Below, one piece after another: positions 1,255 to 26,700 of a stretch of 64,000 bases of DNA; the first letter of the stretch is position 1; each line of letters opens with the position of its first letter. The DNA is from Klebsormidium nitens (Eukaryota; Plantae; Klebsormidiophyceae): the NCBI GenBank assembly GCA_000708835.1, contig DF237363.1, forward strand, positions 1 to 64,000, in the 5' to 3' direction. The notes beneath the pieces were generated by a model that was not told the DNA's origin, made no database searches, and worked only from the letters and a program-made list of their open reading frames with translations. The position numbers and the translations under genes are program-made.

Positions 1255-2813
1255 GAGTGGCGGACAGTGGCGAGGAGCGGCGACTCACCATATGCCGAGA
1301 TGCAAGTGAGTGGGTGCTTTGGTTGCTACAACGAAGTCTGTCAGTATGCACGATTTGAAGAGCTGATTGTCTGCACAAAATGTGTGTTTGATTGCGCCCC
1401 TCAGCCGCCGTGGCCACCACTGCGCTCCCTCTGTGGTTGTAGAACTGATTTAGTCAATCTGCACGTTTAAGAGAAATCTTTTGTTTAGATTGATTGTGCA
1501 TTCTGGCTACGTCTCCGGCTGTGGGCACACCTTCACTCAATCTGCAGTATGCTGAAATACTCAATGTATAGATTCTCTGACAATGCGTGTTTGGTGTTGC
1601 AGGAAGTTCAAGTATCTAGGCGGGCGCGTCCTGATCGGGTTGCGCCACTGGAGTTCCACAACGAATTGAGGGTCGGACACGAGCACGTGAGTGAGATGGT
1701 CTAGTCATCGCCAGAACCCACTGTACTAGTTGTCATAATTCGTCAAGGCAGTCAATCTGCATGTTTCAGAGAAGCTGAGTGTCTAGATCAGACATGCATT
1801 TTGACTGCGTATCCAGCCATGCCCCCAACTCTGCGCTTTCTTGTGATTGATCGCAAGAAGGCAGTCAATTTGCACTGCCTTCGAAGCTCAAATGTTTAGT
1901 ACTTTGGTGCATTTTGACTGCGTCTCTCAGTCGTCGCCCCACCTGCGTGCCTCTCTGGTGGATAGAAGCAGAGGCAGTCAATCTGCACGTTTATGAAAAG
2001 CTATGTAGAGACTAACCGTGCATTTTGACTGCACCCTCCAGCCTTGCCCTCCCTCCACTTCGGCTGTGGTTGATTGAAAGGTTCAGTCAAAATGCATTCT
2101 TCTACAAGCTCATATGTAAAGATTGCTGGTGCCTTTTGACTGTGCTTCTCAGCCAATCCCTGCCTGTGGTGGATTTAAGGGGACAGTCTGTGCACTTGTT
2201 GAGATGCGCAAGTGTGAGCAAAGGTCGGTGCGAATTGACTGATCCTCATGGGACGCCTCACTTGCTGTCGCACTCGGGTTTGAGTTGTCTGCTTCATGCG
2301 ACATGAGGATTCCTAATGTGTTGCTGCACTCTCCTGCAGGATACTTCCAATGCATCCCGCAGGGATGCTCTTCCGAGGTCTGCAATCAAGCTCGTGGCGC
2401 GCGCGTCGCGAGGCTTTCTCACCAACTCGAAGAGAGACCACCGCATTTTTTGAAAGGTGGCGGGGTTCGTGTGCCGGCATGCCAAGAAGGAGCACGGGCC
2501 CGTCGGCCTTCTCTGGACAAAGGCGGCCTGGGTTGGGGACATGCATGCAGCTATGGCAGGGCTCGAGGGTCTGGCGAGCATTCTAGATGCGGGCCTGCAA
2601 CACGGTTTCGAGAAGGTTCTGACGTTGATCAAGCAGGCCCACCAGGAGGGGCTGCAGCAACCAGCGAGGGCCTCCTATGGAGCGAGCAGGACTACCGCAA
2701 GCCTTGCGCCTGCGAGCCCAGCTGTACACGATGAGGCCCGGCCCTTAGCTGGTGGCTAAGGGCCCCCAAGAAAGCGAGGGAGCGACTGACCAGCTATCAC
2801 TTTGGGGACAAAG
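1255..2813 (+). pseudogene. Decayed duplicate of exons 1-3 of the giant replicase gene
   Basis: Same splice sites as copy 2 (atgcaa|gtgagt, gttgcag|gaagtt, gagcac|gtgagt, ctgcag|gat, gacaaag|gtatta). The third exon has an in-frame TGA near 2451 (copy 2 has CGG) and a frameshift/TAA at 2757; LTSYHFGDK is in a shifted frame relative to LASYLFGDE of copy 2. Confidence 0.75.
1440..2200 (+). repeat. Intronic array of degenerate ~110 bp hairpin repeats
   Basis: Recurring gcagtcaat(c/t)tgcac ... ~30 nt ... gtgcattttgactgc inverted arms. Confidence 0.8.
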
Positions 2814-2899
2814 GTATTAGTGACACATTGATCAGGCCAACTTTGATCGACGCACTTGATCGGCCCTTTGCAGAAGTCAGACCGTAAACTTTGTCCGTG

Positions 2900-3460
2900 G
2901 CACTTTGGCTCTTGCCCGAGGTTTTCTGGCACGTTGATAGCAGACACGAGTCAAAATGCACGCTTTGAAGGTCTAACGTATAGGCAAGTAGTGCAAATTG
3001 ACTGCCGACCATGTCCCGAGGTTTTCTGGCACGTTTCAGCCGATAGCAGACTCGAGTCGAAATGCACGCGCTTTGAAGTGTTAATGTACAATTACTTGTT
3101 GCAAATTGACTGACACTGCCAGCGCACGAAGCTTTGGGGACAACGAGTCGAAATGCACGCGCTTTGAAGCTTCGATGTATAGTCAGTTGGTGCAAATTGA
3201 CTGCCGACCATGCATGAGACTTTCTGGCACGTTCGTGACCTTCTGGCACATTATAGACGGTCGAAAGCAGACGCGAGTCAAAATGTACGGGCTTTGAAAC
3301 TTCGATGTATAGTGAACTGCAGTGCGAATTGACTGCATGCATGCCAACCCTGCCCAAGACTTTCTGCTTTCAGGACTTTATGGCACGTTGTAGTCAATAG
3401 CGAACGCGAGTCAAAATGCATCCAGCCTTTGAAGCTCCGATGTACAGTCGATTCGCACTG
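2900..3460 (+). repeat. Array of ~106 bp hairpin repeats (about 5 units)
   Basis: Repeated gagtcaaaatgcacgctttgaag...tatag...gtgcaaattgactgccgaccatg units. Confidence 0.85.
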
Positions 3461-4966
3461 TTAATCAGCAAAATTGCAGACAATTATCTAATATGCGACA
3501 TACAAGCACTGCAGTCCAGAATGCTGGCTGCTGCCAATACATTGTGCATGATGCAAGCGTACAGTGGCTTTTAGTAGCACGACTGTAAAGATCCATGCAG
3601 TCAAGGACCCAACCAAGCGGACATAGAATGTATGTATACAAAGAATGTCAGCTGGGCGGAAAAAACTAAACAATTTGGAATGCTCCTTGAGACATGTCCC
3701 GAAAGTGCGTCTACTAGTGAGAGCACTACCTTGGCATCGACTTGCCCTCCATTCCCCATTTGCGTCGTACATTGAATCCGCACTAAGCTGCACCGTCCTA
3801 GTCCGCTTCTGCCATGAAAGTAACTCACTCCGAACTTGGATACCTGCAAGACCGAGAGCTGTGAATGTGCATCTTTTTTGTGACTTTGGTTGCAAGATCT
3901 AGTCAATGGACCACACTAAGCAGCAACTCTAACAGAGAAGTCCGCCAACAGCATGTCAAGAGACACAAATGTCTGACTAGGCAACAAAGAGCTTCTGGTC
4001 ACAAGAGAGAAAGAGTGCACATGAAGTGTGAAGGGTGACAGCAAGTGAGCAGGGTTTTGCAAACAGAAGCTCTCTCAGGCCGGTAACAAACTGCCAAGAG
4101 CAGGCATTGCAGGCCATTTGCACCAACGTGGAAATCCGTCATTCTTTAAGGGTCGAACAGCAGAATGGCTCAGAAGAAAGACATGTGCCTGCAGCCAGTT
4201 CTCTCTCAATACGACCCCTCAGTCGCCCTCAAATGCAAGAATAGCATTAGGAAATCCACCCTGCCATTTTCTGTCAATACCACTGATCTGCAGACAAGAC
4301 TTGTGCCATCCGAAACAGCTTCAAACAAAGGACGCGGTGGTCTCCTTTAGAGCTTGCCAAGGAAGGGCATCCACAGGACTGCCACAAGGATCGCTCTTGC
4401 AATCCGGACATAGGATTGTCCTGCTGCAACAGTGTCCTTCAGAAGATTGTTGATGGGTGGGCCTTGCGGTGATCAAATGTCTGGAGCACCCTCCAGACAG
4501 GGAGGGCACCTTGAGCTCTTGCAGCAAACTCTGAAGTCTTTCGATAGCTCTTCTTTTGTTTCTTCTCCTTGTTCCTCCCCACCCCCCCTTACCCATCCTT
4601 TTCAGACAGAAGACTGCGGCCTAAAAACATGTCTTCAGCCTTGACTATCCTAGGCCTTGCGTACTCACTGCTGGACCCCTTTGTTAGAAAAGGAAAATCA
4701 CACATGGAGTTCCAGAGTTTGACAAAGGAGTCAAATATGCATCAGAACGAGACAGGTCAACGTCAGCTCTGCAGCGTTCTTATACTTATGTGAGCACAAG
4801 AAAAGAAGCCACCAAGGTCAGAACTGCAGTGCAATTGCACAATAACTCCACGGAAATCACAGGATTTACCTATGAAGCAGGAGATTTCGAATTCCAAACA
4901 GCAGCCAGTAACACCAACTGCAATCGGCTGCCACTAAACAGGCTCCACTGAAGCAAACTTACTGCG

Positions 4967-6124
4967 TCAGATCCGATCCAAGTCCAGCTCGGGGTACCGC
5001 TTCAGCCGTATTGTCCGGTCCTCCAGCACCAACGCCTGCGTGCCAAAGTCGTCCAGCCTGGAGAACTCCCTCACAAGCTCTGCGCTGGACTCGTCACTCA
5101 GACCAATCTTGCGTGCCACCTCTTGCAACTGCTCCAGGTTCGTTGCGACCACAAGATCGGAGGGCTGCAGGTCCCCATAGGCTGAGAGGAGGAACTTGAA
5201 GTGCGCGATTGCTGAATCCAGCAGGAGCTCAAAGAGAGGGATGGGCGCGGTCTGAGCATCGGAGGCTCTGTCACCTTCCTCCAGAACCTTCCTGTAGGTA
5301 TTCCTGTCCAGAAACATTGGGAATGGGACAGGCAACACCCACTCCAGCAGCTTCTTGCTCAAAAGCCGACAGATGCGGCCGTTCCCATCCTCAAAGGGAT
5401 GCAGGCTAACAAAATGGTACTGCGCGAACGCCGCTAGCGCAAAACACATGCCCATGCGCGCCTCGTGTCCCTGAATTTGGTTGGGGATGCTCTTGAGCAA
5501 ACTGTGCACGATCTGGCACAAGCGTTGAACTGACCATTCCTGTATATCATGGTGCGGGAAGAAGTGCTGCGTCCCGTCCAGCCTTGTCGTGAAGCGACCA
5601 TCTTGCCGAAACTCCCCAACGTGGCCGTCAACAGAGTCAACCAATTTGAGATGCCAGGTTTTGATGCGGAGCGGATCAAATGAGACAAAAAGCGATGGCT
5701 GCTTTGCCCGAAAGCTTGTGGGAGAGTACCCCTGCAGGAGGCTAAAGGTCCGCATCACTGCTTTCTCCTCCTTTGTCGAGAGCGACGGCAGTCTGCTTGC
5801 AATGATAGCCTCCGTATCTCCCAGAGACTCAGTTCCAACGTGCTCGAGCTTATTCGTGTGGAACACCCAAGACGCAACGCTCTTTGCCACCATCGCAGAC
5901 TCGACTCCCTCAAGCCTGGCCGCCAGCGACAAGTAATCTTCAATCAGTGTGGTAAGTTCCTTGAGGAGCGGCGAGTACTTGTCAGCAAGGGCGAAGCGAA
6001 GAGGACTGAGAGGATCAGTCTCCAGGCTGCGAAGCTCCTCCAGTCTGCTTTGAGATGGGCCTGCGTCCAGCTTTGCGAGAGCCTCCCTCACGTCCCTTGC
6101 ACCCATCCTGAGGTGCAACGCCAT
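4967..6124 (-). CDS. Intronless Fic-domain (AMP-transferase) protein, ~385 aa, class II-like
   Basis: Canonical Fic catalytic motif HPFEDGNGRICR. Upstream HTNKLEHV resembles the (S/T)xxxE(G/N) autoinhibitory helix. GEFR motif precedes the flap. First ATG at 6124; the ORF is open from 6202. Confidence 0.9.
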   Translation of the reverse strand: MALHLRMGARDVREALAKLDAGPSQSRLEELRSLETDPLSPLRFALADKYSPLLKELTTLIEDYLSLAARLEGVESAMVAKSVASWVFHTNKLEHVGTESLGDTEAIIASRLPSLSTKEEKAVMRTFSLLQGYSPTSFRAKQPSLFVSFDPLRIKTWHLKLVDSVDGHVGEFRQDGRFTTRLDGTQHFFPHHDIQEWSVQRLCQIVHSLLKSIPNQIQGHEARMGMCFALAAFAQYHFVSLHPFEDGNGRICRLLSKKLLEWVLPVPFPMFLDRNTYRKVLEEGDRASDAQTAPIPLFELLLDSAIAHFKFLLSAYGDLQPSDLVVATNLEQLQEVARKIGLSDESSAELVREFSRLDDFGTQALVLEDRTIRLKRYPELDLDRI

Positions 6125-6340
6125 AGCGACTTTGCTTGCCTGTTCTGAACGATAAGCTGATAAATTTGGACTCAGCAAGCCCCGGTGCTGAATCTGGGCC
6201 ACTCCCAGGCCGCCATGTCATTACCCCCTGGGCAGGCCGGCCATACCGTCACCCAGCACTCTTTGGGTCTTGGTACCGTTGGTTCGTTACCTGCCGAAAT
6301 GTTCAAGAAGTTCCCAAGGCGCTGCCTGCCCGACCCTTAG

Positions 6341-6747
6341 NNNNNNNNNNNNNNNNNNNNNNNNNNNNNNNNNNNNNNNNNNNNNNNNNNNNNNNNNNNN
6401 NNNNNNNNNNNNNNNNNNNNNNNNNNNNNNNNNNNNNNNNNNNNNNNNNNNNNNNNNNNNNNNNNNNNNNNNNNNNNNNNNNNNNNNNNNNNNNNNNNNN
6501 NNNNNNNNNNNNNNNNNNNNNNNNNNNNNNNNNNNNNNNNNNNNNNNNNNNNNNNNNNNNNNNNNNNNNNNNNNNNNNNNNNNNNNNNNNNNNNNNNNNN
6601 NNNNNNNNNNNNNNNNNNNNNNNNNNNNNNNNNNNNNNNNNNNNNNNNNNNNNNNNNNNNNNNNNNNNNNNNNNNNNNNNNNNNNNNNNNNNNNNNNNNN
6701 NNNNNNNNNNNNNNNNNNNNNNNNNNNNNNNNNNNNNNNNNNNNNNN
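6341..6747. other. Assembly gap (N run)
   Basis: Run of N inside repeat copy 2. Confidence 1.
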
Positions 6748-8269
6748 TCTTCGGACTGTTGGCGTTGCCGACCCATTTATACCGGGCTCGTGTGTGTGTG
6801 TTAACGCGCCGCAGTTTCAAGTTGCAGTCTGCTGGCAAACCGTTCTCAACTTGGATGCGAGCAACCCTGCCTAGTTGCCAGCTTTGAGCTTCCAAGAGCT
6901 GCCAGAGAAGAAGTTGAGCTGGCAGTGGCGGCCATTGGCGGCATTTCGCAGTCATGGCGGCGCTTGGCGGATATCAGCACATCTTGGCGCTCCTTGGCAA
7001 ACCTCAGCAGTCCATGATGCCCCTAGCCGCCACGTTGCCAAGCATCCTTAACGGCTTGAGATGTTTCCAAAGACATCTTCCGATGTTTCCAGAGACATCT
7101 TGGCAAGGCAGCGGGCTTTGGCGCCCCTTGGCCAATTGGCGTGGCTGCTTCTCACTTGGGAAAGCTTACAGAGCGGCTCTCAACCCCGCTCGCAACATTG
7201 TCAGAGCTCGCAAATTAGAGAAAGAGGATCGAAGAGAAGGAGGCAGGCCAGAAGAAAGCAGGGTCTCCGTAAAGATAAGGTGAGTCCACTTTCTGTGCAC
7301 ATTTTATGCCCAGGCAGCTGGGGACGCGATCTGGTGCTTGTTTTTCAGTTGTACACCTAAGTGGCCTGAAAATCAACCTAGATTGACCTTGCTTTCATGG
7401 CGTTCTGGTCTGGATAATCAGCAGGCGTCTGCTAAAGTCAGCGGGCATACGCTGAGCTCAGCGGGTATTCTTGTTTGCTTAACAACCGGGGATCCAGCAT
7501 GCTGTATCAGCGGGGGTCCGCTGGAATCAGCGGGCGTGCTGGTCTGCAGAACAGCGGGGGACCTGGAACGCTGAAGTAGCGGGGTCCACCAATTTCTTAG
7601 CGGTCTTTCTGGTCCATTGATTTCAAGGGGGGTCCGAGCTGACTGACGTCCCTATGTTGCAAAAGTTGTCCCTTTGCTTTGCGTCCTGCCGGCTTCAGGA
7701 AAGTTCAAGGAGGGGGCTGACTCTAATGCATTTGGAGGTTTCAAATTAGACCTAAAGAAGGGAGCTTCCTGCTGGAGGACCAGTTGAGGGCCCAGCGTTT
7801 TAGGGTCACGGTCAGGATTTTTTTGCTGCCCGCAGTGGAAGTTTCTTACCAGGTGTGGAGTTGGTGGGACTTGTTTGGGGAAAATCCACCGCTGATTGCA
7901 CGACCGCAAGGCGTTTGAAAAGGTGTTGCGAGGCACTGACGCAATGTTCCATGCATTGATGAAATGCAGATCATGATTTCGGGTGAGGCTTCAAACGTGA
8001 CTGACCAGCTCAAAGTCAGCTGAAGAGGGGTCAACGAAGCGAATGGTAGAGTGGCGGAAAGTGATGAATATTGACGACAGTTTGCTGTGGCAAGACGAAG
8101 GAGCCATCGAGTCACCATACGCCGAGATGCAAGTGAGTGGGGGCTTTGGTTGCTACAACCAAGTCAGTCAGTATGCACGATTAAAAAAGCTGATTGTATA
8201 CATAACCTGTGCGTTTTGTTTGCACCCCTCAGCAGTGGCCGCCGCTGCGCTCCCTCTGTGGTTGTAGAA

Positions 8270-9340
8270 ATGATTCAGTTGATTTGCACGATAAGAAAAA
8301 ACCTTCTGTTAAGATTGAATGTGCGTTTTGACTACGTTTCCGGCTGTGGGCAAACCTTCACTCAATCTCAGCGCGTATTTTGAAGAGCTGAATGTATAGA
8401 TTCTCTGACTGCGCGTTCTAGTGGTGCAGGAAGTTAAAGAATTCACGCGGGCGCGTACTGATCGGGTTGCGCCATTGGAGTTCCTCAACAGATTGAGGGT
8501 CGGACACGAGCACGTGAGTGAGAGATCGTGTAGTCGATGCCAGGACCCACTGTAGTTGTGTGAATCCGTCAGGTCAGTCAATTTGCACGTTTCAGGAAGG
8601 CTGCTTGTCTAGATGAAGTATGCATTTTGACTGCGTCTCAGCCGTGCCCCCGACTCAGCGCTATGTTGTGATTGATCGCAAGAAGATAGTCAATTTGCAC
8701 TGCCCTTGAAGCTCAAATGTATAGTACTGTGGTTGCCTCTCGACTGCGTCTCAGCCGTGCCCCCGACTCTGCGCTTTCTTGTAATTGATTGCAAGATGGC
8801 AGTCAATTTGCGCTGCCTTTGGAGCTCAGATGTGTATCACCTTGGTGCATTTTGACTGCGTCCCAAGTCGCGCCGTCCTTGCGCTCCAATGTACAGTTGA
8901 TTGAAAGTAGGCTTTGAAAGAAGGCAGTCAATCTGCCTTCGTTGAAAAAGCTGATTGTCTAGTATGACCGTGCATTTTGACTGCATCTCTCAGCCGTTGC
9001 CCAATCTGCGCGCCTCTGCATTGAATAGAAGCAAAGGCAGTCAATCTGCACTTTCCTGAAAAGCTGTGTGTTAAGACTGACCTTGCATTTTGACTGCTTC
9101 TCTCAGCCGTGGCCCCCCAGCATGCCTCTGTGGTGGTTAGAAATGAAGGCAGTCAATCTGCACGTTCCTGAGAAGCTGTGTGTAAAGACTGACCTTGCAT
9201 TTTGACTGCGCCCCCCCAGCCTTTCCCCTGCCTCCGCTTTTGCCACACATGGGTGATTGAAAAGGGTCAATATGCGTAATTTAACAAGCTCAGATGTAAA
9301 GATTGCCGGTGCATTTTGTCTGTGCTTCTCAGGCAATCCC
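8270..9340 (+). repeat. Intronic array of degenerate ~110 bp hairpin repeats (about 9 units)
   Basis: Recurring gcagtcaatctgcac...gcattttgactgcgtctcagccgtg units, mostly in the intron between exons 2 and 3, with one unit in intron 1. Confidence 0.85.
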
Positions 9341-9959
9341 TGCCTGTGGTGGATTGTAGGGGGCATGGGGGTTCCTGATGTATTGCTGCATTTTCCTGCA
9401 GGATGCTCTTCTTTTCAATGCATCCCGCAGCGATGCTCTTCCGATGTCTGCAATCAGAGCTCTCGTGGCGAGCGCGTCGCGCGGCTTCCTCACGAAGTCA
9501 AAGAGGGGCCACCGGATCCTCCGGAAGGTGGCGGGGCTCGTGTGCCGGTGTGCCAAGAAGGAGCTCGGGCCCGTCGGCCTTCTCTGGACAAAGGCGGCCT
9601 GGGTTGGGGGCCTGCGTGCAGCTGTGGCAGGGCTCGAGGGTCTGGCGAGCACTCCAGATGCGGGCCTGCAATACGTCTTCGAGAATGTTCTAACGTCGAT
9701 CAAGCAGGCCCACCTTGAGGGGCTGCAGCAACCAGCAAGCGCCTCCCATGAAGCTCACAGGACCACTGCGAGCCCAACGCCCGCGAGCCCTGCTGCCACG
9801 AATGAGGCCCGACCCCCAGCTGGTGGCGCATCTGGGAAAGCGAGGAGAGGGAGGGAGGAGCTGGCCAGCTACCTCTTTGGGGACGAAGGTATGAGTGACG
9901 CATTGATCAGGCCAACTTTGATCGAAGCTCCTGATCGGCCCTTTGCGAGAGTCAGACTG

Positions 9960-10560
9960 TAAGCTTTGTCCGGGGCTTTGGCCTATGCCCGAGACATACC
10001 GGCAGGTTGCACAAGTCAAAATGCACGCTTTTAAAGGTCTGGTGTATAGTCAACTGGTGCAGATTGACTGCCGACCATGGCCGAGACTTTCTGGCACGTT
10101 GTAGTTGATAGCAGACACAAATCAAAATGCACGCTTTCAAAGGTCTGTTGTATAGTCAAGTGGTGCCGATTGACTGCCGACTATGGCCGAGACTCTCTGG
10201 CACGTTGTAGTTGATAGCAGACACAAGTCAAAATGCACGCTTTTAAAGGTCTGTTGTATAGTCAAGTGGTGCAGATTGGCTGCCGACCATGGCCGAGACT
10301 CTCTGGCACGTTGTAGTTGATAGCAGACACAAGTCAAAATGCACGCTTTTAAAGGTCTGGTGTATAGTCAACTGGTGCAGATTGACTGCCGACCATGGCC
10401 GAGACTCTCTGGCACGTTGTAGTTGATCGCAGACTTTGTGGCACGTTGTAATTGATAGCAGACGCAAGTCAAAATGCACGCTTTCAAAGGTTTGAATGTA
10501 TAGTCAAGTGGTGCAGATTGACTGCCGACCATGCCCGAGACTTTCTGGCACGTTGTAGTT
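9960..10560 (+). repeat. Intronic tandem array of 106 bp hairpin repeats
   Basis: Unit starts at 10015, 10121, 10227 and 10333 (period 106), then 10468; units are near-identical. Confidence 0.95.
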
Positions 10561-13500
10561 AGCAAAAGGGTCCTTGAGTCTGCAACCGTACAGTTTCTCA
10601 GAGCTCTCGTGCATATGTTTAGAGGTATGAGAAGGCAAGCGTCTATGCCCACACGAGTCAACCAGGACTTCACCCGTTTTCGTTTCTAATCCCAGCTCTT
10701 CATGCTTTTCTTTTTCAGTTCCACACGGCTTCCTCTGCGGAGAATGCAGCAACCCCGCGACCTTTGCAATACGCGGGAGCAGGGCAGGGAGCAACCTCCA
10801 GTACTTCTGTGGTGTGCATCGCGAGGTCACGGGCTGCTTCAAATTCGAGAAAACCCGGGCAGGTGCGCCTTGTGCAACTGCCGGAGTGCAGGCGTGTGAC
10901 GGCGCTCAGAGACGATTGTATTGATCACTCGACCAGGAGCTGCACCAGCCCCAAGCATGCAAGTATGCAGAGTCTGTAGACATGTTGGCGGGAATTAGCC
11001 GGCCAATGTGTCCCGCAAGTGAGCACTCATAATAAAGACCTTCGCGTCTTGTTTCCCAGAATGGGCACGTGACCGTGTAGTGTACGGATTGAAGGCAGAG
11101 CTGGCGCGAGCGCTTGACGAGGAGTCGCTTCTGAGAGGCATTCGGGGTGAGGGTTTGTTTGAGGCAAAAAATGTGCTCTGACTTTTGGTTTCATTGGACA
11201 GCACAAGATACCCTACTTTGCCAAGGCTATCGTCAAGTTGCACTTGACCTCTATTAATGCAGCTGTTTCAATCTTGTCGATCACGAACTTCTGTCAACCT
11301 TTCGAGCTGTTTGCTCACACCTCAGTTCGATGGGACCTTTCTACTCGCATGCAGAACATGATCGCTTTTCCTCCACAGGTTGGGACAAATGGCAGGAAAG
11401 TGGATACTGGGGAGATGCAACACCAAAAAGCAGAATCCTGATAGGTAAGTCGGTCGGATTATCAGGTTTTGGGTGATAAGACTCGGCTCACATCTGGTTC
11501 TCAAATCATAGATGTTGCGCTCAGCATCTTTTGAAACTTGGATGTCGGACGGTGGTTCTGAGAAGGCCTCAACTTGTGCGCAAGATGGGGTTCGAAGCTC
11601 AAAAACGGCAGCTTGAGCCCTGACCCTTCAAAACTTCGGGCCTATATCGGCGCCTGCTCTCGATTTGTTGACTCTATTCAATTACTGCGGTCGTGAATGA
11701 AGGTCTGCCTATTTGCGTCAATAGCTAATGCTGTCCGGCCGACCATTTGCAGTAAAGCTCCTGATCATGGGCGGAATCGAGAGCAACCCGGGATGGTCAC
11801 CGTCAAATGAAGCTTGCCCGGAAGGAGAGCGTCCTTCAGCATCAGGAGGAGACGCACCAGCATCTGACGGCGGCGGCGCTGCAGTACCGCATCCTCTTCA
11901 TGTGAGCAACCTTTGATGTGTTTTAGTCAACTGCGAGGGGTGGCATTGCTGCGTCGGAACTAGTTGATCAGGCCCTGCAGGCGTTTGTCACGGAAATCAA
12001 GGAGACTCATGGGCTCCGAACACTTTTGGGGGCTTTGGGTATCGACTTTGCAGTCGGACCAATCCAAAATGTTATCAAAACCAATGCATTGATTGCTCCC
12101 AGCCACGTGGACTGATTGCCAACGACGCTGTGTGCTGTTTCAAGTTAGCGCGCAGAGTGATCATCTTGCGTTGGCTTGAAAATCAACCCGGCAAGTCGCA
12201 CCTTCTCACTCTTGACCGTGTAGAACAAGAGGTGCAGATTACAGGGTGAGTCAATCTGCACTAGCGTGAAGAATCGACTGTATAGAACCCGAGGTGCAAA
12301 TTGACAGCCTCTGTCCAAGGGCTTTCTGGGCACTGAGAAGACAACAGGAAAGGGGTTGAGTCAATCTGCACTGGCGTCAAGAATCGACTGTGTGGAACCT
12401 CAGGTGCAGATTGACAGCTCACGCACCTCGCGCTGCCCCCTACGACCTTGAGGTTTAATGCGAGCAGATTGACTGGCCCCGAGCGCGCCATCGTACCTCA
12501 CTCAACCCACCCCCTGCATGATTGCTCTCTTCAAAGCGTACGTATGTTATCAGGCCGCTTCAGATCATTCAACAAAAGCTTGCAAGGCAGGGGCCGCCAC
12601 ACCATCAAAGCTCCAGAAGGTAACTTTCTATCTCTGCTTGCAGGCCGCGACCATTGCCCCTGAAGCCCTGACCGCACTTGCGGAGGTGCGGATGGATTTG
12701 CCTGCATCCTGTGCGAGCACAAAGAGGCCGCTGGAGCAGGCAAGAGCCCTCTGCTCTCCCTCCTCTTCTTCAGCACTTTCCTTCACGAGTTGGATAGTTA
12801 TTCACGCTGCGCTTCATGACCAGAAGGAGCGCTCGGGTTGACCAGAGACTTCTTTCTTCTGCTTGTTCCAAGCCGAGGCGGCGGCCGCAAGCAGCGAAGA
12901 TTGCCAGGGTCCGGCAAAACCTCTTTCGCAACAACCAGGCGTCGACTGTTTTTGCCGTCTTACTAGCTTTTGGCCGTTGCTTCAAAAGGCTGGTCAGCTG
13001 GGCCTGAAATGATCATCCACTTTCCTGATCAAGTGACATGGTGCGCAGGTGCTTCCACAAGCAGGACCGTCGGGGGGGAGGAGGAGGAGACTCTTCAAGG
13101 TCTCGGAACTCGCGAGCAGAGCCCAAGTGGACCATGCTGCAGACAACGTGGACGAACCAGCTCCTGATGTCCGTGCACGGTAAGCTTCCCCCACCGTGCC
13201 ACACGCATTGCATAAGAGCTCGCGCATTTTCCCCCGTAAATTGCTTCTAATAGAAACTGTGCGCGTTCATGTCAATAGCAGTTGCTACTCAGTGCTTGCG
13301 TTGCTCAATAGAACGACTCAAGAATCCAGGAGCATAAGCCAACTCTGTTCCTGTTCTCCTTCTCCCCAACATCCAGGGAAGGAGGAGAGCTGGAGGAAGA
13401 CCTCGGTCAAAGGTCCGAGCGGGGTGCGGGGAGCCGGCGTGATGGGCGCAAGGCCAGGAAGGACCGAGTGGTTGCCGCGTTCTTTGCGCACTGCGAGCAG

Positions 13501-15517
13501 CGGAGAGCTGCATGGGCTGCCCACGAAGAAGAGGAGATGTGTGGCCCACCCTCTTCAACAACGCAACACGATTCTGCTATTAATCTGGCACATCTTTTGA
13601 GAGCAACAAACCAATTTCTTTTCCGTTTTTGACTCGGACGTGCATGCTTCTACATTGGGGTCTTTAGCCGTGTCGTTCGTCTCTGCACATGCTTTTACAA
13701 GATTGTGAGGCCAGGGGTCAACCGACAGCTTCTTGCCACTGCAGCGAGGATGGCGAGGCCCAAGAACGTGAGTCCCGTCCCGGAGCTGCACATCCCAATA
13801 CTTCCCTCGAAGACGTAAGGATGCCTCCGCCCATCCCAAACCTTGCCTTCCGTCACTGAAACAATAGCAGGTCTGGAACGTACAACGTTCTGGTGAAGCT
13901 AATTCGAAGTGGATGAGCACTTTAAGAGTGAGCTGCAACACAGATGTTCTATTGTGCTTTCGGCTTGACATTGCTTACAAGCTGACCTCTACCCGCTTGA
14001 CTATCTTGCGGGATCCTGACAGATTTTAACATTTGCTTGCTGCTGGTGACCAGGTGCCTCTTGGAGGAGAACCCCGGGCGCAAGCGGATGTCCCGCTGCA
14101 TGACGTGCACCGGACAAGGGCTGCTATGGAGTTGACGGCGGTCGCATCTGCTGGAGACATTGGGTTAACGGTGAGTTTACCTGAATCTGCCGGAGAATCA
14201 TTGTGCGCACATGTTGCCAAGCTCGCCAGAAAAGTACCACTCGCATGCCCCTCATGTCTATTGCTTCATGGGCTGGTTCTTGGCATCGTGTTTTACAAAC
14301 CACGTTGGCCAGCTCAAGTGGATTACAATCTGCTTTCACTTTCCTGAGATCCAGCTTATTACACAAACCAGCGGCGGTTTACTGCGACGATTGCGGATGC
14401 TCTCCTTTTACCAATTTTACCCGTTTGCCAACCCGGTCGCCTTTGGGTACAGAACGAGGGCGGCGAAGCAAGGGCGTCGACGTCTGCGGCGCCAAAGACT
14501 GGTCGGCCGGTTCAGAAGAAGCGACGGTGAGCTCGTTGGCCCAGTGTCGCTTGTCTCCATTCTTTCGTGTGCAAAAGTGACTCTTCTGCCATCAGGTGGT
14601 GCTTCCTGAATATTGCACATAGCGAGGGCACTCTTTTAGATCATGGCGGGATTCATCAGACTGCGCTAGATCATCTGATGCTTTTCCCAGCAGCAATCCA
14701 ACCAGTTCTGTCCAGTGCTGCGAGAACTTCCGTGCTGACCTGAATTCATTTACTCTGCAGCAAATGCGCGAAATCGAATCCGGTCCTCAGGGACGAGGCG
14801 GCTCGAGAGGCCGGTCGAGCGGCTGCGGCAGCTCATCTCCAAGCTGTGGGGGCATTGAGGCCCTCGAGAACGCAGTGCAAGGGGCAAATCGTTCATTAAA
14901 CGGAGCTGGGTGATTTTCAAGGCGCGACTCATGCACGGTCCCCCCTCGTAAGTTGCCATGCCTTCTTCCTGCAGAGGTTGGAGTAGACTTATGTGTCCGT
15001 ATCTGATTGCCGCTATTGACCTCGCTTGATTTTTTGTGCAAGTTCAATTCAGACTTTTAAGCTCCACCAGATCTAGGCTGTTTTTGAGGGCGCGATTAGG
15101 TTGTTTTTTGGTTCTGCTCTGGGCACCCGTTTTGGGGCCGTGGTCAAGCTGATCAGGGGTTGCAGGCAGGCTTTTCTTGGGGAGGGGGGCGTGATTAGGT
15201 TGGCTTCAGGTCTGCTGCACATGGGCCTGGTTTCTGGGGCCGCCGCTCACGTTGGGTTCGGAGGCCACGGTCAGGCTGGTTCCGGGTTTGTTGGTTTGCT
15301 CTGGGGCTGGTTTGGGGCTGATTTGGGGCTGTTCTCAAGCTGATTTGGAGACGCAGTCAGGCTTGTCTTGGGTAGGCAAGCAGCCCGGTGTAGCTAGAGC
15401 GCTTTCTTCTGAAATTGAGTTGCTGTCAAAGATGCGGCCCGGCTGGCAACAGGGGCGTTGTAGGGTGCAAGCCTCAAGCCTCTTTGACCCTTTCTAATGA
15501 TTGGTTCTTTGGCGCAG

Positions 15518-17331
15518 GCGCTGGTGACGGACGCTCCCATCTCAAACGTCGGGACCCTGGTCGACCGTCTGAAGGCCAAGCGGGACGCTGAAGAGGCAGC
15601 CGCGCGAGAGGAGCGGCTCAAACGGTATGGGCGCACGCAACCCCTAGGGGTTCCACGTAGGACGGGAGATGCCTCGGCCCACACCATGGACCAGGACTCG
15701 AGCCCCTCTTCCCCTCTGCGCTCTTCCGTCCTCCCTTCCCAGGGTGAAGACCCCGCCCCGAGCGCAGCGCAGCCCCCCACAGCAGCCCCCTCTCCACAGG
15801 TCGTGGAAGACGAACGGGCCCCGCCGTCGCCGCCGGCCGACCAGCCGCCTGTGGATGTGGATGCGGGTTTGCCTCCCTCCCTCTCGGAAACCCATGATGC
15901 GCCCCCCTTCCCCGCTGGGCGCCCACCCTCTCCGCCCCCCGCTGACCAGCCCCAGGAGCCCCTCGTCATAGCCCCGCTCCCGGAAGAAAACCCACTGCCC
16001 GAGGTCCCCGGTCAGCTCCCTTCAGTCACCCCTTCCCCTTCCCACGCCCACCAGGAGCAAGCGCTTGCGTCCGTCGACCAGGGGCTTGCGCCTGACCTGC
16101 CAAATCAGCCCTCGGCAACGGAGGCAAGACGACCCACTGCAGCCGAGCCGTCCGTAGAGCCGTCGTCTGCGCTTCCGCCCACCGAGCCACTCACGCAGCT
16201 GCCTGGGGATCCCCCTCAGGCTGCGTCGGTCGAGGACAGCGGGCCCGGCTGGTTGAAGAAGCTTGAGTTGGCGCTCCGGCAGCAGCGAGCGAAGGGCCAT
16301 GCGATCGTTGTGGCTCAGGACATAAACGAGGAAGGGGCAAAGCGCTGGGGCAGTTTCAAGGACGTCGCAGCCCTGGCAGCGTTTCGGGGGCCGCTCGCGC
16401 GACCCGCTCACCTGTATGAAGTCATTCAGGACGACGCCCGCTGGCGCGTCTACTTTGACCTGGACTTCTCGATCGCCACCGAGGATTTCAACGACTTTGA
16501 GCGGCGCCTGGCAGCATTCCACCTCGTCAGAGACCGGTTCCTGACCTCGGTGCTCAACGTTCCCAGGGGTGCGCTTCGTTTTCAAGCGTGCAAGGCGCAC
16601 GGGCCGGCGCGGCCCCCGAAGCAGGGTTTTAAGTTCAGCGTGCACGAGGTTCTGGAGGGGTTTTATCTGAGGGGATCGGACGCCAGGAGGGCGTTCGGGA
16701 AGGCCTTTGGGTCCTTCTTGGAGGATCCCCCAGACGATCTGAAAGCGAGTGTCGAGCTCATGCGGAAAGTGGGCGGGTCCGACTATATCTGGGACGGATC
16801 GGTCTATGGGCGGCGCCGTTGCTTCCGGTTGCTAAGGTCGTCTAAGTTTGGGGACAATTTCCGTCCCCTCGTCCCATTGGAGGGCAGCTCCGAGGCGATT
16901 GCGGACCACCTGGTCTGCTTGTACTCGGAAGCGGAAGTGGCTGGTTCCACCGAGGTCAGCGCCGCCCTCCTCGGGGAGTGGGCGATCGCGAGGCCTGCCC
17001 CCCTGGCCCCGCCCCGCGTGGGGCCCTTCCGACAGAGGGCGCTCACCCTCGAAGAGGCGAGCACCTCACAGGGCCCCGGCGCCGAGGACCTTTCGGAGCA
17101 GGAGCGGGCCATTCTCCTCGCCCGCTACCAGGAGGACCACGCAGGGGCCGAAATCAGCCGGGTGGTCCAGGAGCGGCCGGTGGTGTTCTTCGTTCTCTTC
17201 CAAGCGCCGGAGCCCACGTGCTGCATTGCGGGAAGGCGTCACACATCCTTGGGCAACCAGAATCCGTACCTCATCTACAGAAGGAACGAGCCGCGCATCG
17301 CACGCTATCAGTGCTTTGCAAACAGCTGCAG
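15518..17331 (+). CDS. Exon encoding a Pro-rich linker, a PrimPol (CCDC111/NCLDV-herpes clade) AEP primase and a Zn ribbon
   Basis: LYEVIQDDARWRVYFDLD (motif I DxD), KFSVH (motif II SxH), WDGSVYGRRRCFRLLRSSK (motif III), then CCIAGRRHTS...YQCFANSC (UL52/PrimPol-type Zn finger). Ends at ag|gtgagt, in phase with tttgcag|g at 18348. Confidence 0.85.
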
Positions 17332-17499
17332 GTGAGTCCTCTGGCAGTAAGCTGCAGGTGAATTTCTGGCGGTGAGCAGAGACTTAGAAGCGCTTCCCAA
17401 ATGCCGTCAATTTGCGCAACCGGTTTTCAGAGAAACAGACATCAAGAAGGTGCAGATTGTCGAGTCCGGAGTCTGTACGGCAACCTGTCAGTTTCAAGT

Positions 17500-18270
17500 G
17501 CGATCGAGCTAACAAAGCCCCTTTCTGGGCTGGTTTTAGGGCGCGCTCTGATTTGTTTGCAAGGTGCGGTCAGGTCGACCAGACGTTTTGCTATCGTTTG
17601 GGTTGGGTCAATTCTGTTTTCGGGGTCTGTGCAAGCAGTCAGACTGGTTCTTGGTGCAAAGTCAAACGCTGTTCTTTCATTTCTTTGGGGCCAGTCTCAG
17701 GGCTGCGGTCCATCTGTTTGGTGTGCAATCAGGTTGACTCGTACGGCCAGAAGTCAAGCTGCTTTAGAGCCTGATGTGAGTTTTGCCGTGGGTGTGTCGG
17801 GGGGCCTGCTTTTGGGGTTGTTTCAGGGGCAGCAGCCGATCAGCTTTGGGTGTTCTTAACAACGCTGTATTTGGGCGCGAGATTAGATTGACGTTAGGAT
17901 CTGTCTTCAGGGCAACTTTCATTGTTCGGTTGTGTTTTAGGGTTGATTTGCTTCAGAAGTTAGGCCGGTTCAGGGGCTCCTGCACCTGGGCCTCTTGTGG
18001 GCCTCCTTTTGGGTTTGGATCAGGGGTTCAGGGGCCAGAAAGAGTTGGGACGCACCTCATCTGCCTTGCTCGGAATCGGGCTGATTTCGTGTGAGTGAGT
18101 AGGGCTGACCAGTCCGATGCTTGGTGCGAGCCTGATGTACTTCCTAGACCACGGTCACAGCGTCGGTTTACATGAGGCTTGGTCGAGGAGATTTTGGGGG
18201 CACATCAGGCTGGATCTGGGCCTTAACAGATTGAGCGGCCGGAAAGTACTTCAGCGTGGGCCTAAGGGGG
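17500..18270 (+). repeat. G/T-rich low-complexity intronic repeats (similar tracts at ~15070-15480 and ~19240-19540)
   Basis: Recurring tttggg / ggctgattt / atcagg motifs filling introns of the replicase gene. Confidence 0.55.
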
Positions 18271-18347
18271 TGTTCAAGCTGAGCCGCCCGAGTCTTCTCG
18301 GAAAATTCTACACGTTCTCAAGCGCACCTTACGCTTCCTTTTTGCAG

Positions 18348-20224
18348 GGGCGAGTGCCGGATGCTGCCCCTGGACATGCTCACCACGTTCGGCTGGACGG
18401 AAGACTACGAGGAGAATCTGGGAATGCGACCCTACCCCGTCTTTGAGATCGAGCACGTCCGCAAGCGGACCATGCTGATTTCCGCCAAGAAGGGGGTGGG
18501 AAAATCAAAAGCGTTCATGGATTGGGCAGTGGCCATGGTCGGGAAGAATCCCGGCCTTTCTTTCCTCCTCATCGGAGCTAACATCTCTCTTTCCCGAAAG
18601 TATCACCAGGACTTAGTCGACGCGGGCGTGAAGGACGTCGTGCTCTACCAGGAGGCGCCTCCGGGGCCTATCAACGGTCCCCGTGTCGTCTGCTGCATCA
18701 ACTCTATCCACCGCGTGCAATTCAAGATGGACGTCGTGGGGATGGACGAGATGGACATGGTGCTCACGAACCTCAACTCCGAGGTCATGACCCAACGGGG
18801 CAGGGTGCTGTCCTGCCTCGAGGCGTTCGTGGCGGGCGCGAAGGTTGTCATTGGCATGGACGCCAACATCGATTGCGCGCGGGTCATGGAATACCTCTTC
18901 ATGGCACGCCCGGATGCGGCTCTCCACACCATTCGAAATAGAGGCTTGTATCCAGCGGCGAGGCGTGCGACCATCCGGGTCTTCTCGCAAGCGAGCGAGT
19001 CGCTCGAATGTATCGGCACCGCCGTGCAGGATGTGTTGGACCGTGTCGCCCGAGGCACGAAAGTTGTTGTGAGTTGTCTCTGAGTTTTTTGGGAACTAAT
19101 CAGCCGCTCTCGCTGTTAACAGCGGAACGAGCTGGCCTATGATCTCGAAAGGGCATATCTTCGTGCTGCTCCCAAGTTTGTTGCACGAGGTTGAGTAGGC
19201 ATTCAAGCTGCTTGGAGTGTGGTCACGCTGAAATGGGCTTGTGGGTCTGTACTTGGGGCTGTGGTCAGACTGATTTGCGGCTGCAATCAGCCTTGATTTT
19301 CACCATTGTGGTAGGCCTGGGTTTGGAGGCTGGGTTTCGAGCTGCAATCAGGCTATTCGGGGATGCATATGCGATCGATTGGGCCCACGAACAGGCTCTT
19401 TCCAGGCTGCTGTTGAAGAGTTGTGGGCCCAACTTCTTTGAGCTGCCTCCAAAGGCTGTGGTCAAGACCATTCTCAGATTGCGGCCGGACTATTGGGGTC
19501 CGCTTATTCGGGGCTTGGTTTGCGATGAGTCTTTGTTAGACAAATGCACATCCCCTTTTTGTCCAAGCCAACAACTTGCTCCGCCCTCCTTATGCAGTGC
19601 CCTTCGACCTCCAAGCGCTTCGTGAAACACCTTGAACATCATTTCAACGTCGAGTTCCCGCCCGCCGAGCCCCAAAAGCGCGGCATCTTTCTTCATGCCG
19701 ACAAGAGGTCGAAGGCCGATGAGGACTTCTTCCAGAAGGCAATGGCCGAGCCAGACACCTTCTTGGAGGCGGACTGCGTGGCCTTCTCTCCAAAACTCGG
19801 CCCCGGCGTTTCAAAAGAGAAGCCGTACGCCGAGGAGACGGTCGCTTTCGCTCTTAACAGCCTCAACGGGCCTGATGTTGAGACGCTTCTCCAGCAGCAC
19901 GCTCGCTTCCGGACGGTCACCAACTCCACCATCGACTACAAGCAGGTGGTCTCGTCAGCAGTGGATCTGCCGCGCTCTACCGAGGCGGTCTTCCAGGCGA
20001 TCGAGCGGGACGACAGACAGATTGTCAAGATGCTCGGCGACGCCTCAGGCTTCCATTTCCTGAGGGGCTCGCGTGGCATCTGTGACCGATCCTCAGCGAG
20101 CTGCGTCTTGTACGCAAACAACATCCTCGCAAAGGTGGAAAGCTATCTGGAGTTCGTGCCGAAGCTGAAGGCCGACCTAGAGAAGCAGGGCTACGAGGTG
20201 ACGGTTGAGCACATCGAACCAAGG
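18348..20224 (+). CDS. Exons encoding a UL9/origin-binding-protein-like SF2 helicase
   Basis: Walker A ISAKKGVGKS, Ia GANISLS, CCINSIHRV, Walker B GMDEMD, motif III GMDANID, spliced KVV|CPSTSK, motif V FSPKLGPGVS, motif VI QQHARFR. Splice 19068->19598 is in frame. Confidence 0.82.
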
Positions 20225-21949
20225 GTGAGATTGCCGAACGTTCGAAGCAGCTTCAGCTTCCTTGTGTTGCAAACTCATTCGGTTTTGAAGTGCTTAGTCG
20301 AGATCAAGAGGTTGAGTCGATTCGCACTAGGGCGACTGTATAGAACCGGAGATGCAATTGACAGCCTCTGTCCAAGGGCTTTCTGGGCACCGGAACGACA
20401 AGAGGAAAGGGGTCGAGTCAATTTGCACTGGCGTCAAGAATTGACTAGGCTGCTTCAGTTCATTGGAAAAAAGCTTGCAAGGCAGGGGCCACCGGATAAT
20501 CAAAGCTTCCAGAAGGTGACTGGACGTTTCAGACATGTTATTTTGTTATGTGATCCATTGTCATATACCTTTCAGAGATCAAGATTTCAAGACAAGTTAT
20601 GGCTCGATTTGAGAGTAAGGAGACATGCATACCAATCCTTTGAGGCTATATCGCGTTTGCGTCTGCAAGAGAATCAAACTCTCACCCTTTTACTTTCCAG
20701 GGCAACCTTGGGCGTCCACCTCCAGAGGTGCCTCTCGGCTTTGATCCGGACCCAGAGCTTCTGAATGACGAAGACTGGCGCGCCAGATACATCATCAACG
20801 TGGACCAGTACGAGCGTTTGTGCGAGAGGCCGGAGGAGTTGAGTCAGAGGGAGCAGCTCCAGGAGTATCTGCTCGAGATGGTTACAAATGAGTACAAGGT
20901 CGACCCTAGGCGGGTTGATCACAGCTTCTACCTTCGCTCCTGCGCTGATACGGACGAAGCAGAGAAGACGAAAGAGGCTCACGCAAACTACCTTAGGTGA
21001 GCTTCTCAAGCGGCCGCGCGTTGCCGCTCGAGCAAATGTCAAAACTCTTCTGCACCCTTCACTTCGGCTAAATGTGGACGTTTGGGTTTGAAGAGTGTAG
21101 CACATGTCTGAAGCCAGAGCGTCTTTCTGTGCCCTCACTGCAATGAGTCGAATCTTTCTATTTGCTGCCCCCTAACGATGATTGCGCTATGCAGATTTCG
21201 TGAGCACCGCTTCGCCACCCTCGCCGGCGATCTGGACAGAGCGCTGGGCCAAGTCAACGAGTTCGGCGTGGTCCAGGAGTACGTCAAGGTCGTCCGCGAC
21301 CCCCTCAACCGCGTGCCGTTTGCGGCCCGCATCCTTGCCTTCCTAGTCGGTTGCGAAGAGGAGCAGCTAGACCATGGAGCGGAGCTGTGGGAGGTCTCGG
21401 AGGAAAGCGTGCAGGCCGCCTATGCGAGGTTCATCGGATTCAGCAAAGAGCAGCTGAAGACCATCTTCAACCTGTACGGCTTTGTGCAGCAGATCTCCAG
21501 GCGCTCCTCAAAAACGGCCGAAACAGGGAACAATGAGAGAAAGGCTCAAAAGCGTAATGCAGTGGGGAAAGTTCTTAGAGCGGGCCTCGGAGTTGAGCTC
21601 CAGCTGGCAAAAAAGAGCAACAACAAATTCATCTCTCCCCACCTCTTGACGCCTGCAATCTATAGGGGCTTGCATGAGCGATACGGTTCATACGATCCAG
21701 GAGTAGGGGCTGCAGAGGAGTGCATAATTAGGTTGTAAAGGTGGTGATTTTTGGAGAGAAGCTGCATAGATCCAGACACTTTCATTATGTATTTTAGGAG
21801 TGTACATATGATTCAATTGTCAGTCTCTTGTAGACCTTGGTAGTGTCTGGATTACGCACCGGTTGCTTTTTTTTCCATCTAACCGCGTTGCTTGCCGTGT
21901 CCGCAAATAGTTCTTTGCCTCTTTAAAGCATGCCCTCTTTGTGGCATGT

Positions 21950-24290
21950 TGTAATCGCTTGCACGAGTCAATATGCACGGGCTTTCAAGCTTTAATGTAT
22001 AGTCAATGGGTGCAATTTGACTGCCGACCATGCCCCCGAGTCACTCGTTCTGGCATGTTGTAGTGAAAAGCTCACGTGAGTCAATATGCACGCTTTTGGA
22101 GGTTTGATGTATAGTCGATTGGTGCAACTTGACTGCTGACCATACCCGAGACTTTTTGGCATGTAGGAATCGAGTAGAATTGCGCGGGCTTTGAAGCGAG
22201 TCTACTATATAGTCGATGGGTGCAAATTGACTGCCGACCATGCCCGAGACTGTCTGGCATATTCTGGCAACGTAGTGGATAGCTCACGCGAGTCAATATG
22301 CACGCTTTTGGATGACTGATGTATAGTCAATTGGTGCAAATTGACTGCCGACCATGCCTGGGACCTTTCCTGGCACGTTGTAGTTAACAGCAGAAACAAG
22401 TTAAAATGCATGGGCTTTCAAGCTCTGATGCATAGTCAATTGGTGCAAATTGACGGGCAACCATGTCCGGGACCTTTCCTGGCACGTTGTAGTTGATAGC
22501 AGAAGCGAGTAGAAATGCACGGGTTTTGAAGCTCTGATGTATAGTCAAAGGGTGCAAATTGCCTGACGACCATGGCCGAGACTTTCTGGCATGTTGTAGT
22601 AGATATAGCTCACGCAAGTCAATATGCACGCTTTTAGAGGTCTGATGTATAGTCAATGGATGCAGATTGACTGACGACCATGGCCGAGACTTTCTGGCAT
22701 GTTGTAGTAGATATAGCTCACGCAAGTCAATATGCACGCTTTCAGAGGTCTGATGTATAGTCAATTGGTGCATATTGATTGCCGACCATACCCGAGACTG
22801 TCTGGGCATGTTGTAGTTGATAGTCTATGCGGGTCAATACATGCACGCTTTGGAGGCCNNNNNNNNNNNNNNNNNNNNNNNNNNNNNNNNNNNNNNNNNN
22901 NNNNNNNNNNNNNNNNNNNNNNNNNNNNNNNNNNNNNNNNNNNNNNNNNNNNNNNNNNNNNNNNNNNNNNNNNNNNNNNNNNNNNNNNNNNNNNNNNNNN
23001 NNNNNNNNNNNNNNNNNNNNNNNNNNNNNNNNNNNNNNNNNNNNNNNNNNNNNNNNNNNNNNNNNNNNNNNNNNNNNNNNNNNNNNNNNNNNNNNNNNNN
23101 NNNNNNNNNNNNNNNNNNNNNNNNNNNNNNNNNNNNNNNNNNNNNNNNNNNNNNNNNNNNNNNNNNNNNNNNNNNNNNNNNNNNNNNNNNNNNNNNNNNN
23201 NNNNNNNNNNNNNNNNNNNNNNNNNNNNNNNNNNNNNNNNNNNNNNNNNNNNNNNNNNNNNNNNNNNNNNNNNNNNNNNNNNNNNNNNNNNNNNNNNNNN
23301 NNNNNNNNNNNNNNNNNNNNNNNNNNNNNNNNNNNNNNNNNNNNNNNNNNNNNNNNNNNNNNNNNNNNNNNNNNNNNNNNNNNNNNNNNNNNNNNNNNNN
23401 NNNNNNNNNNNNNNNTAAACGTGCACGGGCTTTGAAGCTTTAATGTATAGTCAATGGGTGCAGATTGACTGACGACCATGGCCGAGACTTTCTGGCATGT
23501 TGTAGTAGATATAACTCATGCAAGTCAATATGCACGCTTTCAAGGGTCTGGTGTATAGTCAATTGGTGCAAATAGACTGCCGACCATACCTGAGACTTTC
23601 TGAACATGTTGTAGTTGATAGATCATGCGAGTCAATACATGCACGCTTTGGAGGTCGATTTGATGTATAGTCAATTAGTGCAAATAGACCGCCGACCATG
23701 CCCGAGATTTTGAAGCGTTGTACTTGATAGCAGGGACGAGTGAAAATGCACGTGGCTTGATCTAATGTATAGTCGATTGGTGCAAATTGACTGCCAACCA
23801 TGCCCGAGACTTTCTGGCACGTTGTATATACTAGCAAAGACGAGTAAACGTGCACGGACTTTGAAGCTTTAATGTATAGTCAATGGGTGCAAATTGACTG
23901 TCAACCATGCCCAAGACTTTTTGGCATGTTCAATGTAGTGGATAGCTCATGCGAGCCAATATGCATGCTTTTGGAGGTCTGATGTATAGCCCACTGGTGC
24001 AAATTGACTGCCGACCATGCCCGAGATTTGTTGGCACGTTGGAGTTAATAGCAGAGACGAGTCAAAATGCACGGGCTTCAAAGCTTAGATGTATGGTCAA
24101 TGGGTGCAGATTGACTGCTGACCATGCCAAAGACTTTCCAACTGGGCACGTTGTGATTGATAGCAGACATGATGGCAAAACGCACGGACTTCGAAACTAT
24201 AATGTATAGTCAATGGGTGCAGATTGGCTGTCGACCATTGCCATAACGGAGACTTTCTGGCGCGTTGTGATTGATAGCAAAAAATTGGCA
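21950..24290 (+). repeat. Large tandem array of ~106-113 bp hairpin repeats (at least 17 visible units plus an N gap), two subtypes
   Basis: Units at ~21967, 22080, 22174, 22292, 22400, 22509, 22618, 22726 and 22833, and about 8 after the gap. Consensus GAGTCAATATGCAC-~30 nt-GTGCAAATTGACTG-CCGACCATGCCCGAGACTTTCTGGCA(C/T)GTTGTAGTTGATAGC. Confidence 0.95.
22859..23415. other. Assembly gap (N run) inside the hairpin array
   Basis: Run of N flanked by repeat units on both sides. Confidence 1.
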
Positions 24291-26212: not shown

Positions 26213-26263
26213 GCCTCGATGTACCTTTCGCAAGTTGAGCATAGTTGCGGCGTATGAGGAGAT

Positions 26264-26599: not shown

Positions 26600-26700
26600 T
26601 GTCCCTATGTTATTGCTAGGAAAAAAAGCTCGCCGTTCAACCGCAGAAAACAACAAGGTGCGTTCGGATCCATTGGTTTTTTTCTGATGATCATGACAGA

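Follow-up and report, generated by a model that had tools for sequence, protein, structure and literature searches.

The 64,000-nucleotide stretch analysed here (the window; positions 1 to 64,000 of contig DF237363.1, assembly GCA_000708835.1) comes from Klebsormidium nitens and carries an intron-rich gene, model P0186 (KFL_004140030, 1,945 aa; 8043..21738, + strand), whose predicted product joins a PrimPol-type primase to a helicase like UL9, the origin-binding protein (OBP) of herpes simplex virus (HSV). The large exons of this replicase gene match P0186 at 99-100% from 8043 to 21735, and the reading frame is open. A truncated second copy of its 5' part lies upstream, and within the two copies and just past the stop codon of the longer one are seven clusters of a two-armed repeat that are candidate cis-acting sites of the element.

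The core of each repeat unit is about 57 bp long and consists of AGTCAAnnTGCAC, a spacer of 30-31 nt and the inverted arm. The pattern GTCAAnnTGCAC-N28-32-GTGCAnnTTGAC is matched exactly at 12 places in the window and at none in each of 100 shuffles, and a search with a profile trained on 38 cores from the window itself recovered 44 units at an expectation value (E) below 1e-3 (6, 5, 9, 5, 2, 1 and 8+8 in clusters 1 to 7), bearing out the hairpin repeat family in seven clusters described by the first-pass annotation. All 44 lie on the + strand. The rightmost unit ends at 24236, and the window holds no unit beyond 24,300 (best profile E = 2.0), in line with the earlier claim that the repeat is absent to the right of 24.3 kb; the profile is circular within the arrays, yet this empty right side is a fair control. 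Most counts below rest on the 39 of 42 extracted cores that retain 18 or more of the 22 fixed arm bases. The arms are 13 bp long, with 11 fixed and two free positions, their centres lie about 44 bp (roughly four helical turns) apart, and the spacer, which measures 30-31 nt in 31 of the 39 cores, is 60% A+T compared with 47% for the window. Units recur every 104-113 bp in clusters 4 and 7, mostly every 109-114 bp in clusters 1 and 3, and every 91-130 bp in cluster 2; the 106-110 bp first ascribed to the unit is too narrow for this spread.

Linker sequence and the two free arm positions divide the units into three subfamilies: A (clusters 1 and 3), B (clusters 2, 4 and 7) and C (clusters 5 and 6). 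Compared with clusters 2, 4 and 7, clusters 1 and 3 have the two free positions interchanged: here an A arm reads as a B arm in reverse complement, with spacer and linker keeping the forward direction, which suggests exchange from arm to arm. An opposite orientation of clusters 1 and 3, suspected from the arms, was ruled out by a TGTATAG-like spacer word that runs forward in 34 of 39 cores and in reverse in two, and the single orientation proposed for all clusters is thereby confirmed.

All seven clusters are on the + strand, and the claim that they occupy introns or the 3' flank of the replicase gene holds for clusters 3 to 7. Cluster 3 (8161..9360) comprises nine A-type units in introns 1 and 2; it had been placed at 8270-9340, but it starts at 8161 and is split by the exon at 8424-8513. 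Cluster 4 (9981..10561), in intron 3, consists of five B-type units that are 94% alike, a recent expansion, and is spanned by a GT-AG joint at 9886-10717 in contigs of both putative RNA runs. Two C-type units and a lone arm form cluster 5 (12246..12478), within an intron extending from about 11913 to 12638, and cluster 6 (20312..20444), a shortened C-type unit with a half unit, lies in the intron at 20234-20697, where putative RNA contigs show a splice joint at 20223-20700. GT-AG joints were found at four more introns in such contigs, many of which come from paralogs. The contig analysis as a whole covered three of four runs; none of the runs that contain this stretch is registered as RNA, and that the two runs are RNA is a guess. 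Cluster 7 (21930..24277), with 16 B-type units, begins about 190 bp past the P0186 stop codon and is interrupted by a 557-base N gap (22859-23415).

Clusters 1 and 2, by comparison, belong to the separate truncated copy (25..3465, + strand), which includes the upstream region and first exons and ends within cluster 2. Window positions 63-3420 duplicate 6820-10478 at 72-78% identity, a 30-bp match extends the left edge of the copy to position 25, and its exon at 2349-2756 is 76% identical to aa 64-200 of P0186. Cluster 1 (1334..2245; six A-type units) is in the introns of this copy, and cluster 2 (2911..3465) holds five B-type units, the final one half. Clusters 1 and 2 therefore repeat clusters 3 and 4 by duplication, leaving about five independent clusters; the number of units is unequal between the two gene copies. 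Recombination between clusters 4 and 7 was considered as the origin of the truncated copy and rejected: the cores of cluster 2 resemble the two to about the same degree, and the sequences flanking them have nothing in common. A short CAGCGGG-containing repeat with a period of about 20 bp precedes each gene copy (620-840 and 7400-7650). A high-copy insert with a (GT)n end lies at an N gap (6341-6802) and is absent from the truncated copy.

The replicase gene belongs to a family with 11 models in K. nitens, spread over ten scaffolds; one of the 11 lacks a helicase match, and K. subtile also has relatives. All 44 units fall in sequence of this family and none in the remaining 39.7 kb, and so, within the window, the proposed association of the repeat with PrimPol-UL9 stands. 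Three DNA contigs continue from a C-type unit into a variant of the intron that houses it, with a loose end at 12309. Pattern scans of other sequence gave 0 and 1 matches in viral contigs, none in genome contigs and 18 in metagenome contigs; all 19 are single copies with unrelated spacers and with neither a replicase match nor a BLASTN match to the window, and no related replicase locus was found in the viral, metagenome or genome contigs scanned. Ten of the 18 metagenome matches and the sole viral one (L005, L010-L016, L018, L019 and L021) are bacterial-looking single palindromes of the form GTCAAnnTGCACAAA...TTTGTGCAnnTTGAC, three of them identical in sequence, with unrelated spacers; their likeness to the repeat is probably convergent. 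Rfam gave nothing at the palindrome site in the 12 loci scanned, and a type II hammerhead ribozyme (57.4 bits) lies at L014:533-597.

The arms are the constrained part of the unit. Identity between subfamilies is 87-90% at the 11 fixed arm positions, as opposed to 53-58% in spacers and 49-52% in linkers, with a random baseline of 47-49%. Because the arms were kept while the linkers decayed to chance level, the repeat is not a uniformly decaying minisatellite. Nor do the arms vary as a paired stem: two double changes, one of them compensatory, were counted in 429 cells, and the two free arm positions pair in only nine and eight of 42 cores. Uncompensated changes and mostly mismatched free positions point to a bipartite protein site held at fixed spacing.

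A protein that might bind such a site is encoded in the same gene. P0186 begins with an N-terminal part bearing a 2A-like motif, followed by a long Pro-rich linker, an AEP/PrimPol domain, a Cys/His cluster, a UL9-like superfamily 2 (SF2) helicase and a predicted OBP-like C-terminal domain. The helicase matches PF02399 at E 2.4e-16 (59.5 bits against a cut-off of 20), and the AEP motifs match human PrimPol at E 0.004 when compared alone and at E 8e-13 with a family profile. The motif G(V/I)ESNPG (window about 11770-11790, P0186 aa 327), which occurs in four family members and which we take to be 2A-like, would separate the N-terminal part from the replicase via ribosome skipping.

An AlphaFold model of the paralog P0003 (mean predicted local distance difference test score, pLDDT, 85; 99 sequences) has HSV-1 OBP as its top PDB match (E 3.5e-18), with which it aligns over 546-559 residues, reaching OBP residues 807-812 at a root-mean-square deviation (rmsd) of 13; alignments with the other helicases listed cover at most 351 residues, about 200 fewer. 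Against BFVD the best matches of this model are giant-virus OBP-like proteins, with E down to 1e-29. The C-terminal domain, at about aa 1690-1935 of P0186 and common to 130 of 200 proteins examined (fragments included), contains near the C-terminus a helix-loop-helix in which a basic KRN motif is conserved. When the domain of the window protein was modelled alone (pLDDT 93), OBP came top among 48,161 chains, with Z 6.2 over 187 residues at rmsd 5.9, as against Z 3.4 for the runner-up. Pfam SAP matched none of 41 proteins at E<=0.5. On these models we predict that P0186 is a helicase of the HSV-OBP type whose C-terminal domain is OBP-like as well, that domain being likely homologous to the one in OBP.

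What HSV UL9 recognises resembles the repeat in layout. In HSV, oriS has two inverted boxes around a spacer, the boxes are bound by the C-terminal SAP subdomain of UL9, and one UL9 dimer can bridge two of them, the isolated C-terminal domain being monomeric (PMC13483431). HSV-1 oriS/UL9 (PF02399; PDB 9HGI, 9HGJ) and the repeat have in common a pair of inverted boxes whose GCAC ends point towards a spacer of about 30 nt; from GCAC to GTGC we counted 33 nt in oriS, by eye on the printed substrate, compared with 30-31 nt in the repeat. Like P0186, HSV UL9 is an SF2 helicase with a DEMD Walker B motif, and OBP is the best structural match of the C-terminal domain. P0186 differs in having a primase fused in the same chain, in showing no RVKNL, and in being the product of an intron-rich nuclear algal gene, and about 44 tandem units stand here against few origins in HSV.

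The best predicted-structure matches are the primase-OBP helicases of giant viruses, found through BFVD in Pyramimonas orientalis virus, Marseillevirus, Samba virus, Bodo saltans virus and Clandestinovirus. Relatives that are 1,000-1,200 aa long and 23-31% identical share the helicase and C-terminal domain, whereas P0186 is spliced, multicopy and longer by about 840 N-terminal residues. Giant-virus core genes are described in Klebsormidium (PMC5294986). Among titles and abstract openings we found no literature on the binding sites of giant-virus OBP-like proteins.

The first-pass annotation had also likened the clusters to the homologous regions (hrs) of baculoviruses, the weaker of its two analogies. 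Hrs are also several dispersed arrays with an imperfect inverted repeat in a longer unit, but their palindrome measures 24 bp within a unit of 64 bp (PMC4535591), as opposed to 13-bp arms around a 30-nt spacer in units of 106-113 bp, and two boxes around a spacer are the layout of oriS. The likeness to hrs is one of layout only (seven clusters), in the context here of an algal nuclear gene. The hr binder IE1 is, we presume, unrelated to the UL9-like protein of the window. By membership the arrays are neither oriS nor hr; it is by layout that they resemble oriS.

We tentatively read the repeat as a set of element-specific cis sites, most likely the binding site of the element's own UL9-like protein, a reading that we hold to be a serious possibility, if somewhat short of probable. 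The earlier suggestion of UL9-like binding sites keeps its footing in the constrained arms and spacing and in HSV OBP being the best structural match of the modelled C-terminal domain. A UL9-like dimer would grip both arms and open the spacer using ATP, after which the fused PrimPol would prime synthesis, such that the arrays might act as iterated origins of a mobile unit; those in the gene's own introns would perhaps also serve as an autoregulatory sink.

Several observations weigh against this reading. The OBP match of the C-terminal domain has a Z of 6.2, and a Z under 8 may reflect merely a common arrangement; Foldseek gave no match for the C-terminal model at E<=0.001, the best Z in a second look was 2.6, and RVKNL, the OBP recognition motif (PMC12543377), is not visible in the family alignment. 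At 60% A+T the spacer is unlike the oriS core, an 18-nt run of pure A+T (PMC13483431). At least five of the eight bases of HSV Box 1, GTTCGCAC (PMC12543377), are matched in 46 of 78 arms, but the arms represent one ancestral motif and the likeness was spotted post hoc.

Also on this side, + strand transitions in the arms favour G·T over A·C by 27:8 (19:7 counted once per cluster group), compared with an unbiased 62:73 (30:42) outside the arms, in spacers and linkers (Fisher p 0.001 and 0.011, overstated because the units are related and not independent); a symmetric double-strand site does not predict this bias, which hints that the motif folds as a single strand. The outer 6 bp of the arm is, we presume, a W-box, making a host factor possible. 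Confinement speaks for the reading, but within limits: summed DNA contig depth at 85% identity was 29-100 over clusters 3-5 and 91-94 over the helicase exons, against a baseline of about 20 and 812 in the bin with the high-copy insert, such that the clusters stay within about five times the baseline and show no sign of a dispersed high-copy family at >=85% identity; contig depth does not equal copy number, however, and with arrays about 65-84% alike, diverged dispersed copies would be missed at 85%, so that the depths argue only against a young, abundant dispersed family. Finally, the copies compared showed neither a right end in common nor inverted termini.

Other genes in the window bear on how such an element might move. 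On the - strand, at 29757..34900, lies a CxC4/KDZ-like transposase gene (CxC4 E 0.001, KDZ E 0.17, both below curated cut-offs) in which a stop codon at 31731-31733 interrupts the frame. Its nearest paralog is KFL_001560190 (87%); its KDZ-like paralogs match CxC4 at E 7e-5 to 8e-3 and KDZ at E 0.024-0.17, all likewise below cut-offs. K. nitens scaffold 00156, 170 kb long, carries the nearest replicase paralog, GAQ83650 (95% in the helicase exon), and, two tags away from it, the nearest KDZ-like paralog, GAQ83652 (87%). One of 11 K. nitens KDZ-like matches shares a scaffold with a listed replicase paralog, five of the scaffolds being shorter than 13 kb, and this single case may reflect a shared element or a segmental duplication. 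We regard the KDZ-like transposase as a candidate partner of the replicase gene, and the best one, for integration. Since no ends were found and this transposase may belong to the unit, the 'self-contained' replicase-plus-origin system originally envisaged is unproven.

Cargo genes occur in Kyakuja-Dileera-Zisupton (KDZ) elements (PMC12730594), which in Chlamydomonas can be as long as 31.7 kb (PMC9977147). The window is like them in having weak CxC4 and KDZ matches next to the replicase gene, but it yielded neither the defined termini nor the 7-8 bp target duplication of such elements; the parts of PMC12730594 and PMC9977147 covered mention neither primase-helicase cargo nor internal two-arm arrays.

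Between the replicase and transposase genes, window positions 24350-29289 form an intronless stretch of 48% GC, and the genes in it (25154..29289, + strand) are a tyrosine-recombinase-like open reading frame (ORF) and a Prim-Pol gene with a DUF5906 helicase, the latter broken by an in-frame stop at 27958-27960. This block is probably a separate inserted element. The recombinase-like call relies on motifs judged by eye, Pfam giving no match; the ORF has 30 relatives, 28 of them at 51-79%, and four viral loci with a 25-26% relative contained no repeat. For one recombinase-like match (P0032) and one KDZ-like match (P0222) the longest contig is in each case 41,549 bp. A Fic-domain ORF (4970..6217, - strand; PF02661 E 6e-10), divergent from the replicase gene, is covered by putative RNA contigs. 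Further right are an unrelated 121-bp tandem array (54148-54642) and a 50-bp palindrome (51689-51738).

With these neighbours in view, the arms could be bound by a protein other than the UL9-like one, which would explain the same constraint on sequence and spacing and which we consider unlikely. The KDZ-like transposase might use them as internal or subterminal sites of a large transposon, as the two tags between GAQ83650 and GAQ83652 on one scaffold would allow, but the arrays occupy the replicase gene and its surroundings, at distances of 5-34 kb from the transposase, which has none nearby, and only the one K. nitens KDZ-like match of 11 is on the scaffold of a listed replicase paralog. The N-terminal Cys/His domain encoded by the replicase gene itself is a second candidate, and host WRKY factors a third, for which paired W-boxes would form an intronic enhancer driving the element. 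An enhancer role fits the intronic position, and TTGACY is found at 4.7 per kb left of 24.3 kb against 1.0 to the right, an excess that follows from the arrays themselves; a W-box leaves unexplained the equally conserved TGCAC and the fixed spacer.

Doubtful, too, is a neutral minisatellite carried along as the gene family multiplied, in which conversion at the quasi-palindrome would mimic conservation of the arms. The two gene copies do differ in unit number, cluster 4 has expanded recently (94%), and the reverse-complemented free positions of A and B suggest exchange between arms. Such conversion would, however, perfect the pairing and let the sequence drift, whereas the arm sequence is kept in three subfamilies, two central mismatches persist and the length of the spacer is fixed.

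We find it rather improbable that the site is read as a single strand, the + strand of pre-mRNA or of displaced DNA folding into a stem with a 2x2 internal loop that would serve splicing or export, or PrimPol priming. The G·T bias, seen on + and in the arms only, fits such a signal, as do the sense orientation of all units and an RNA folding energy that favours + in 32 of 39 cores. HSV OBP also binds a hairpin form, mini-OriS* (PMC12543377), and this signal therefore overlaps with binding by the UL9-like protein. Against it stand the single compensatory change in 429 cells, folding z-scores that range from -0.4 to -4.3 in six units on + and fall below -2 in only three, the absence of any Rfam match at gathering score within the window, and the position of cluster 7 past the stop codon.

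Recombinase core sites have a shorter spacer than that of the repeat, and a recombinase or attC-like reading was dropped for that reason; the sole K. nitens recombinase-like match, of 30, is on a scaffold without a listed replicase paralog.

Returning to the UL9-like protein as the binder, its furthest extension would be a self-synthesising transposon that combines a giant-virus PrimPol-UL9 initiator, intron-embedded oriS-like origins and a KDZ-like transposase for integration, a combination to which we assign a low probability. Our searches found no literature on Klebsormidium together with UL9, and in the titles and abstract openings searched neither this element nor its repeat is described; repeat libraries, Repbase, supplements and subscription journals may contain them.

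OBP-like helicases are common in giant viruses, and their names rest on likeness to herpes UL9. A spliced member of this family, set amid dozens of natural variants of a candidate site, raises the question of whether the origin recognition of this fold extends beyond the herpesviruses. Should the UL9-like protein prove not to bind the arms, there remains a repeat under unusual constraint in the introns of a multicopy gene of viral origin; should it bind them, the locus would represent a mobile element that replicates, in an alga related to land plants, and if the self-synthesising transposon were also real, the repeat would be the first cognate DNA site, as far as our searches show, for the OBP-like helicases of giant viruses.

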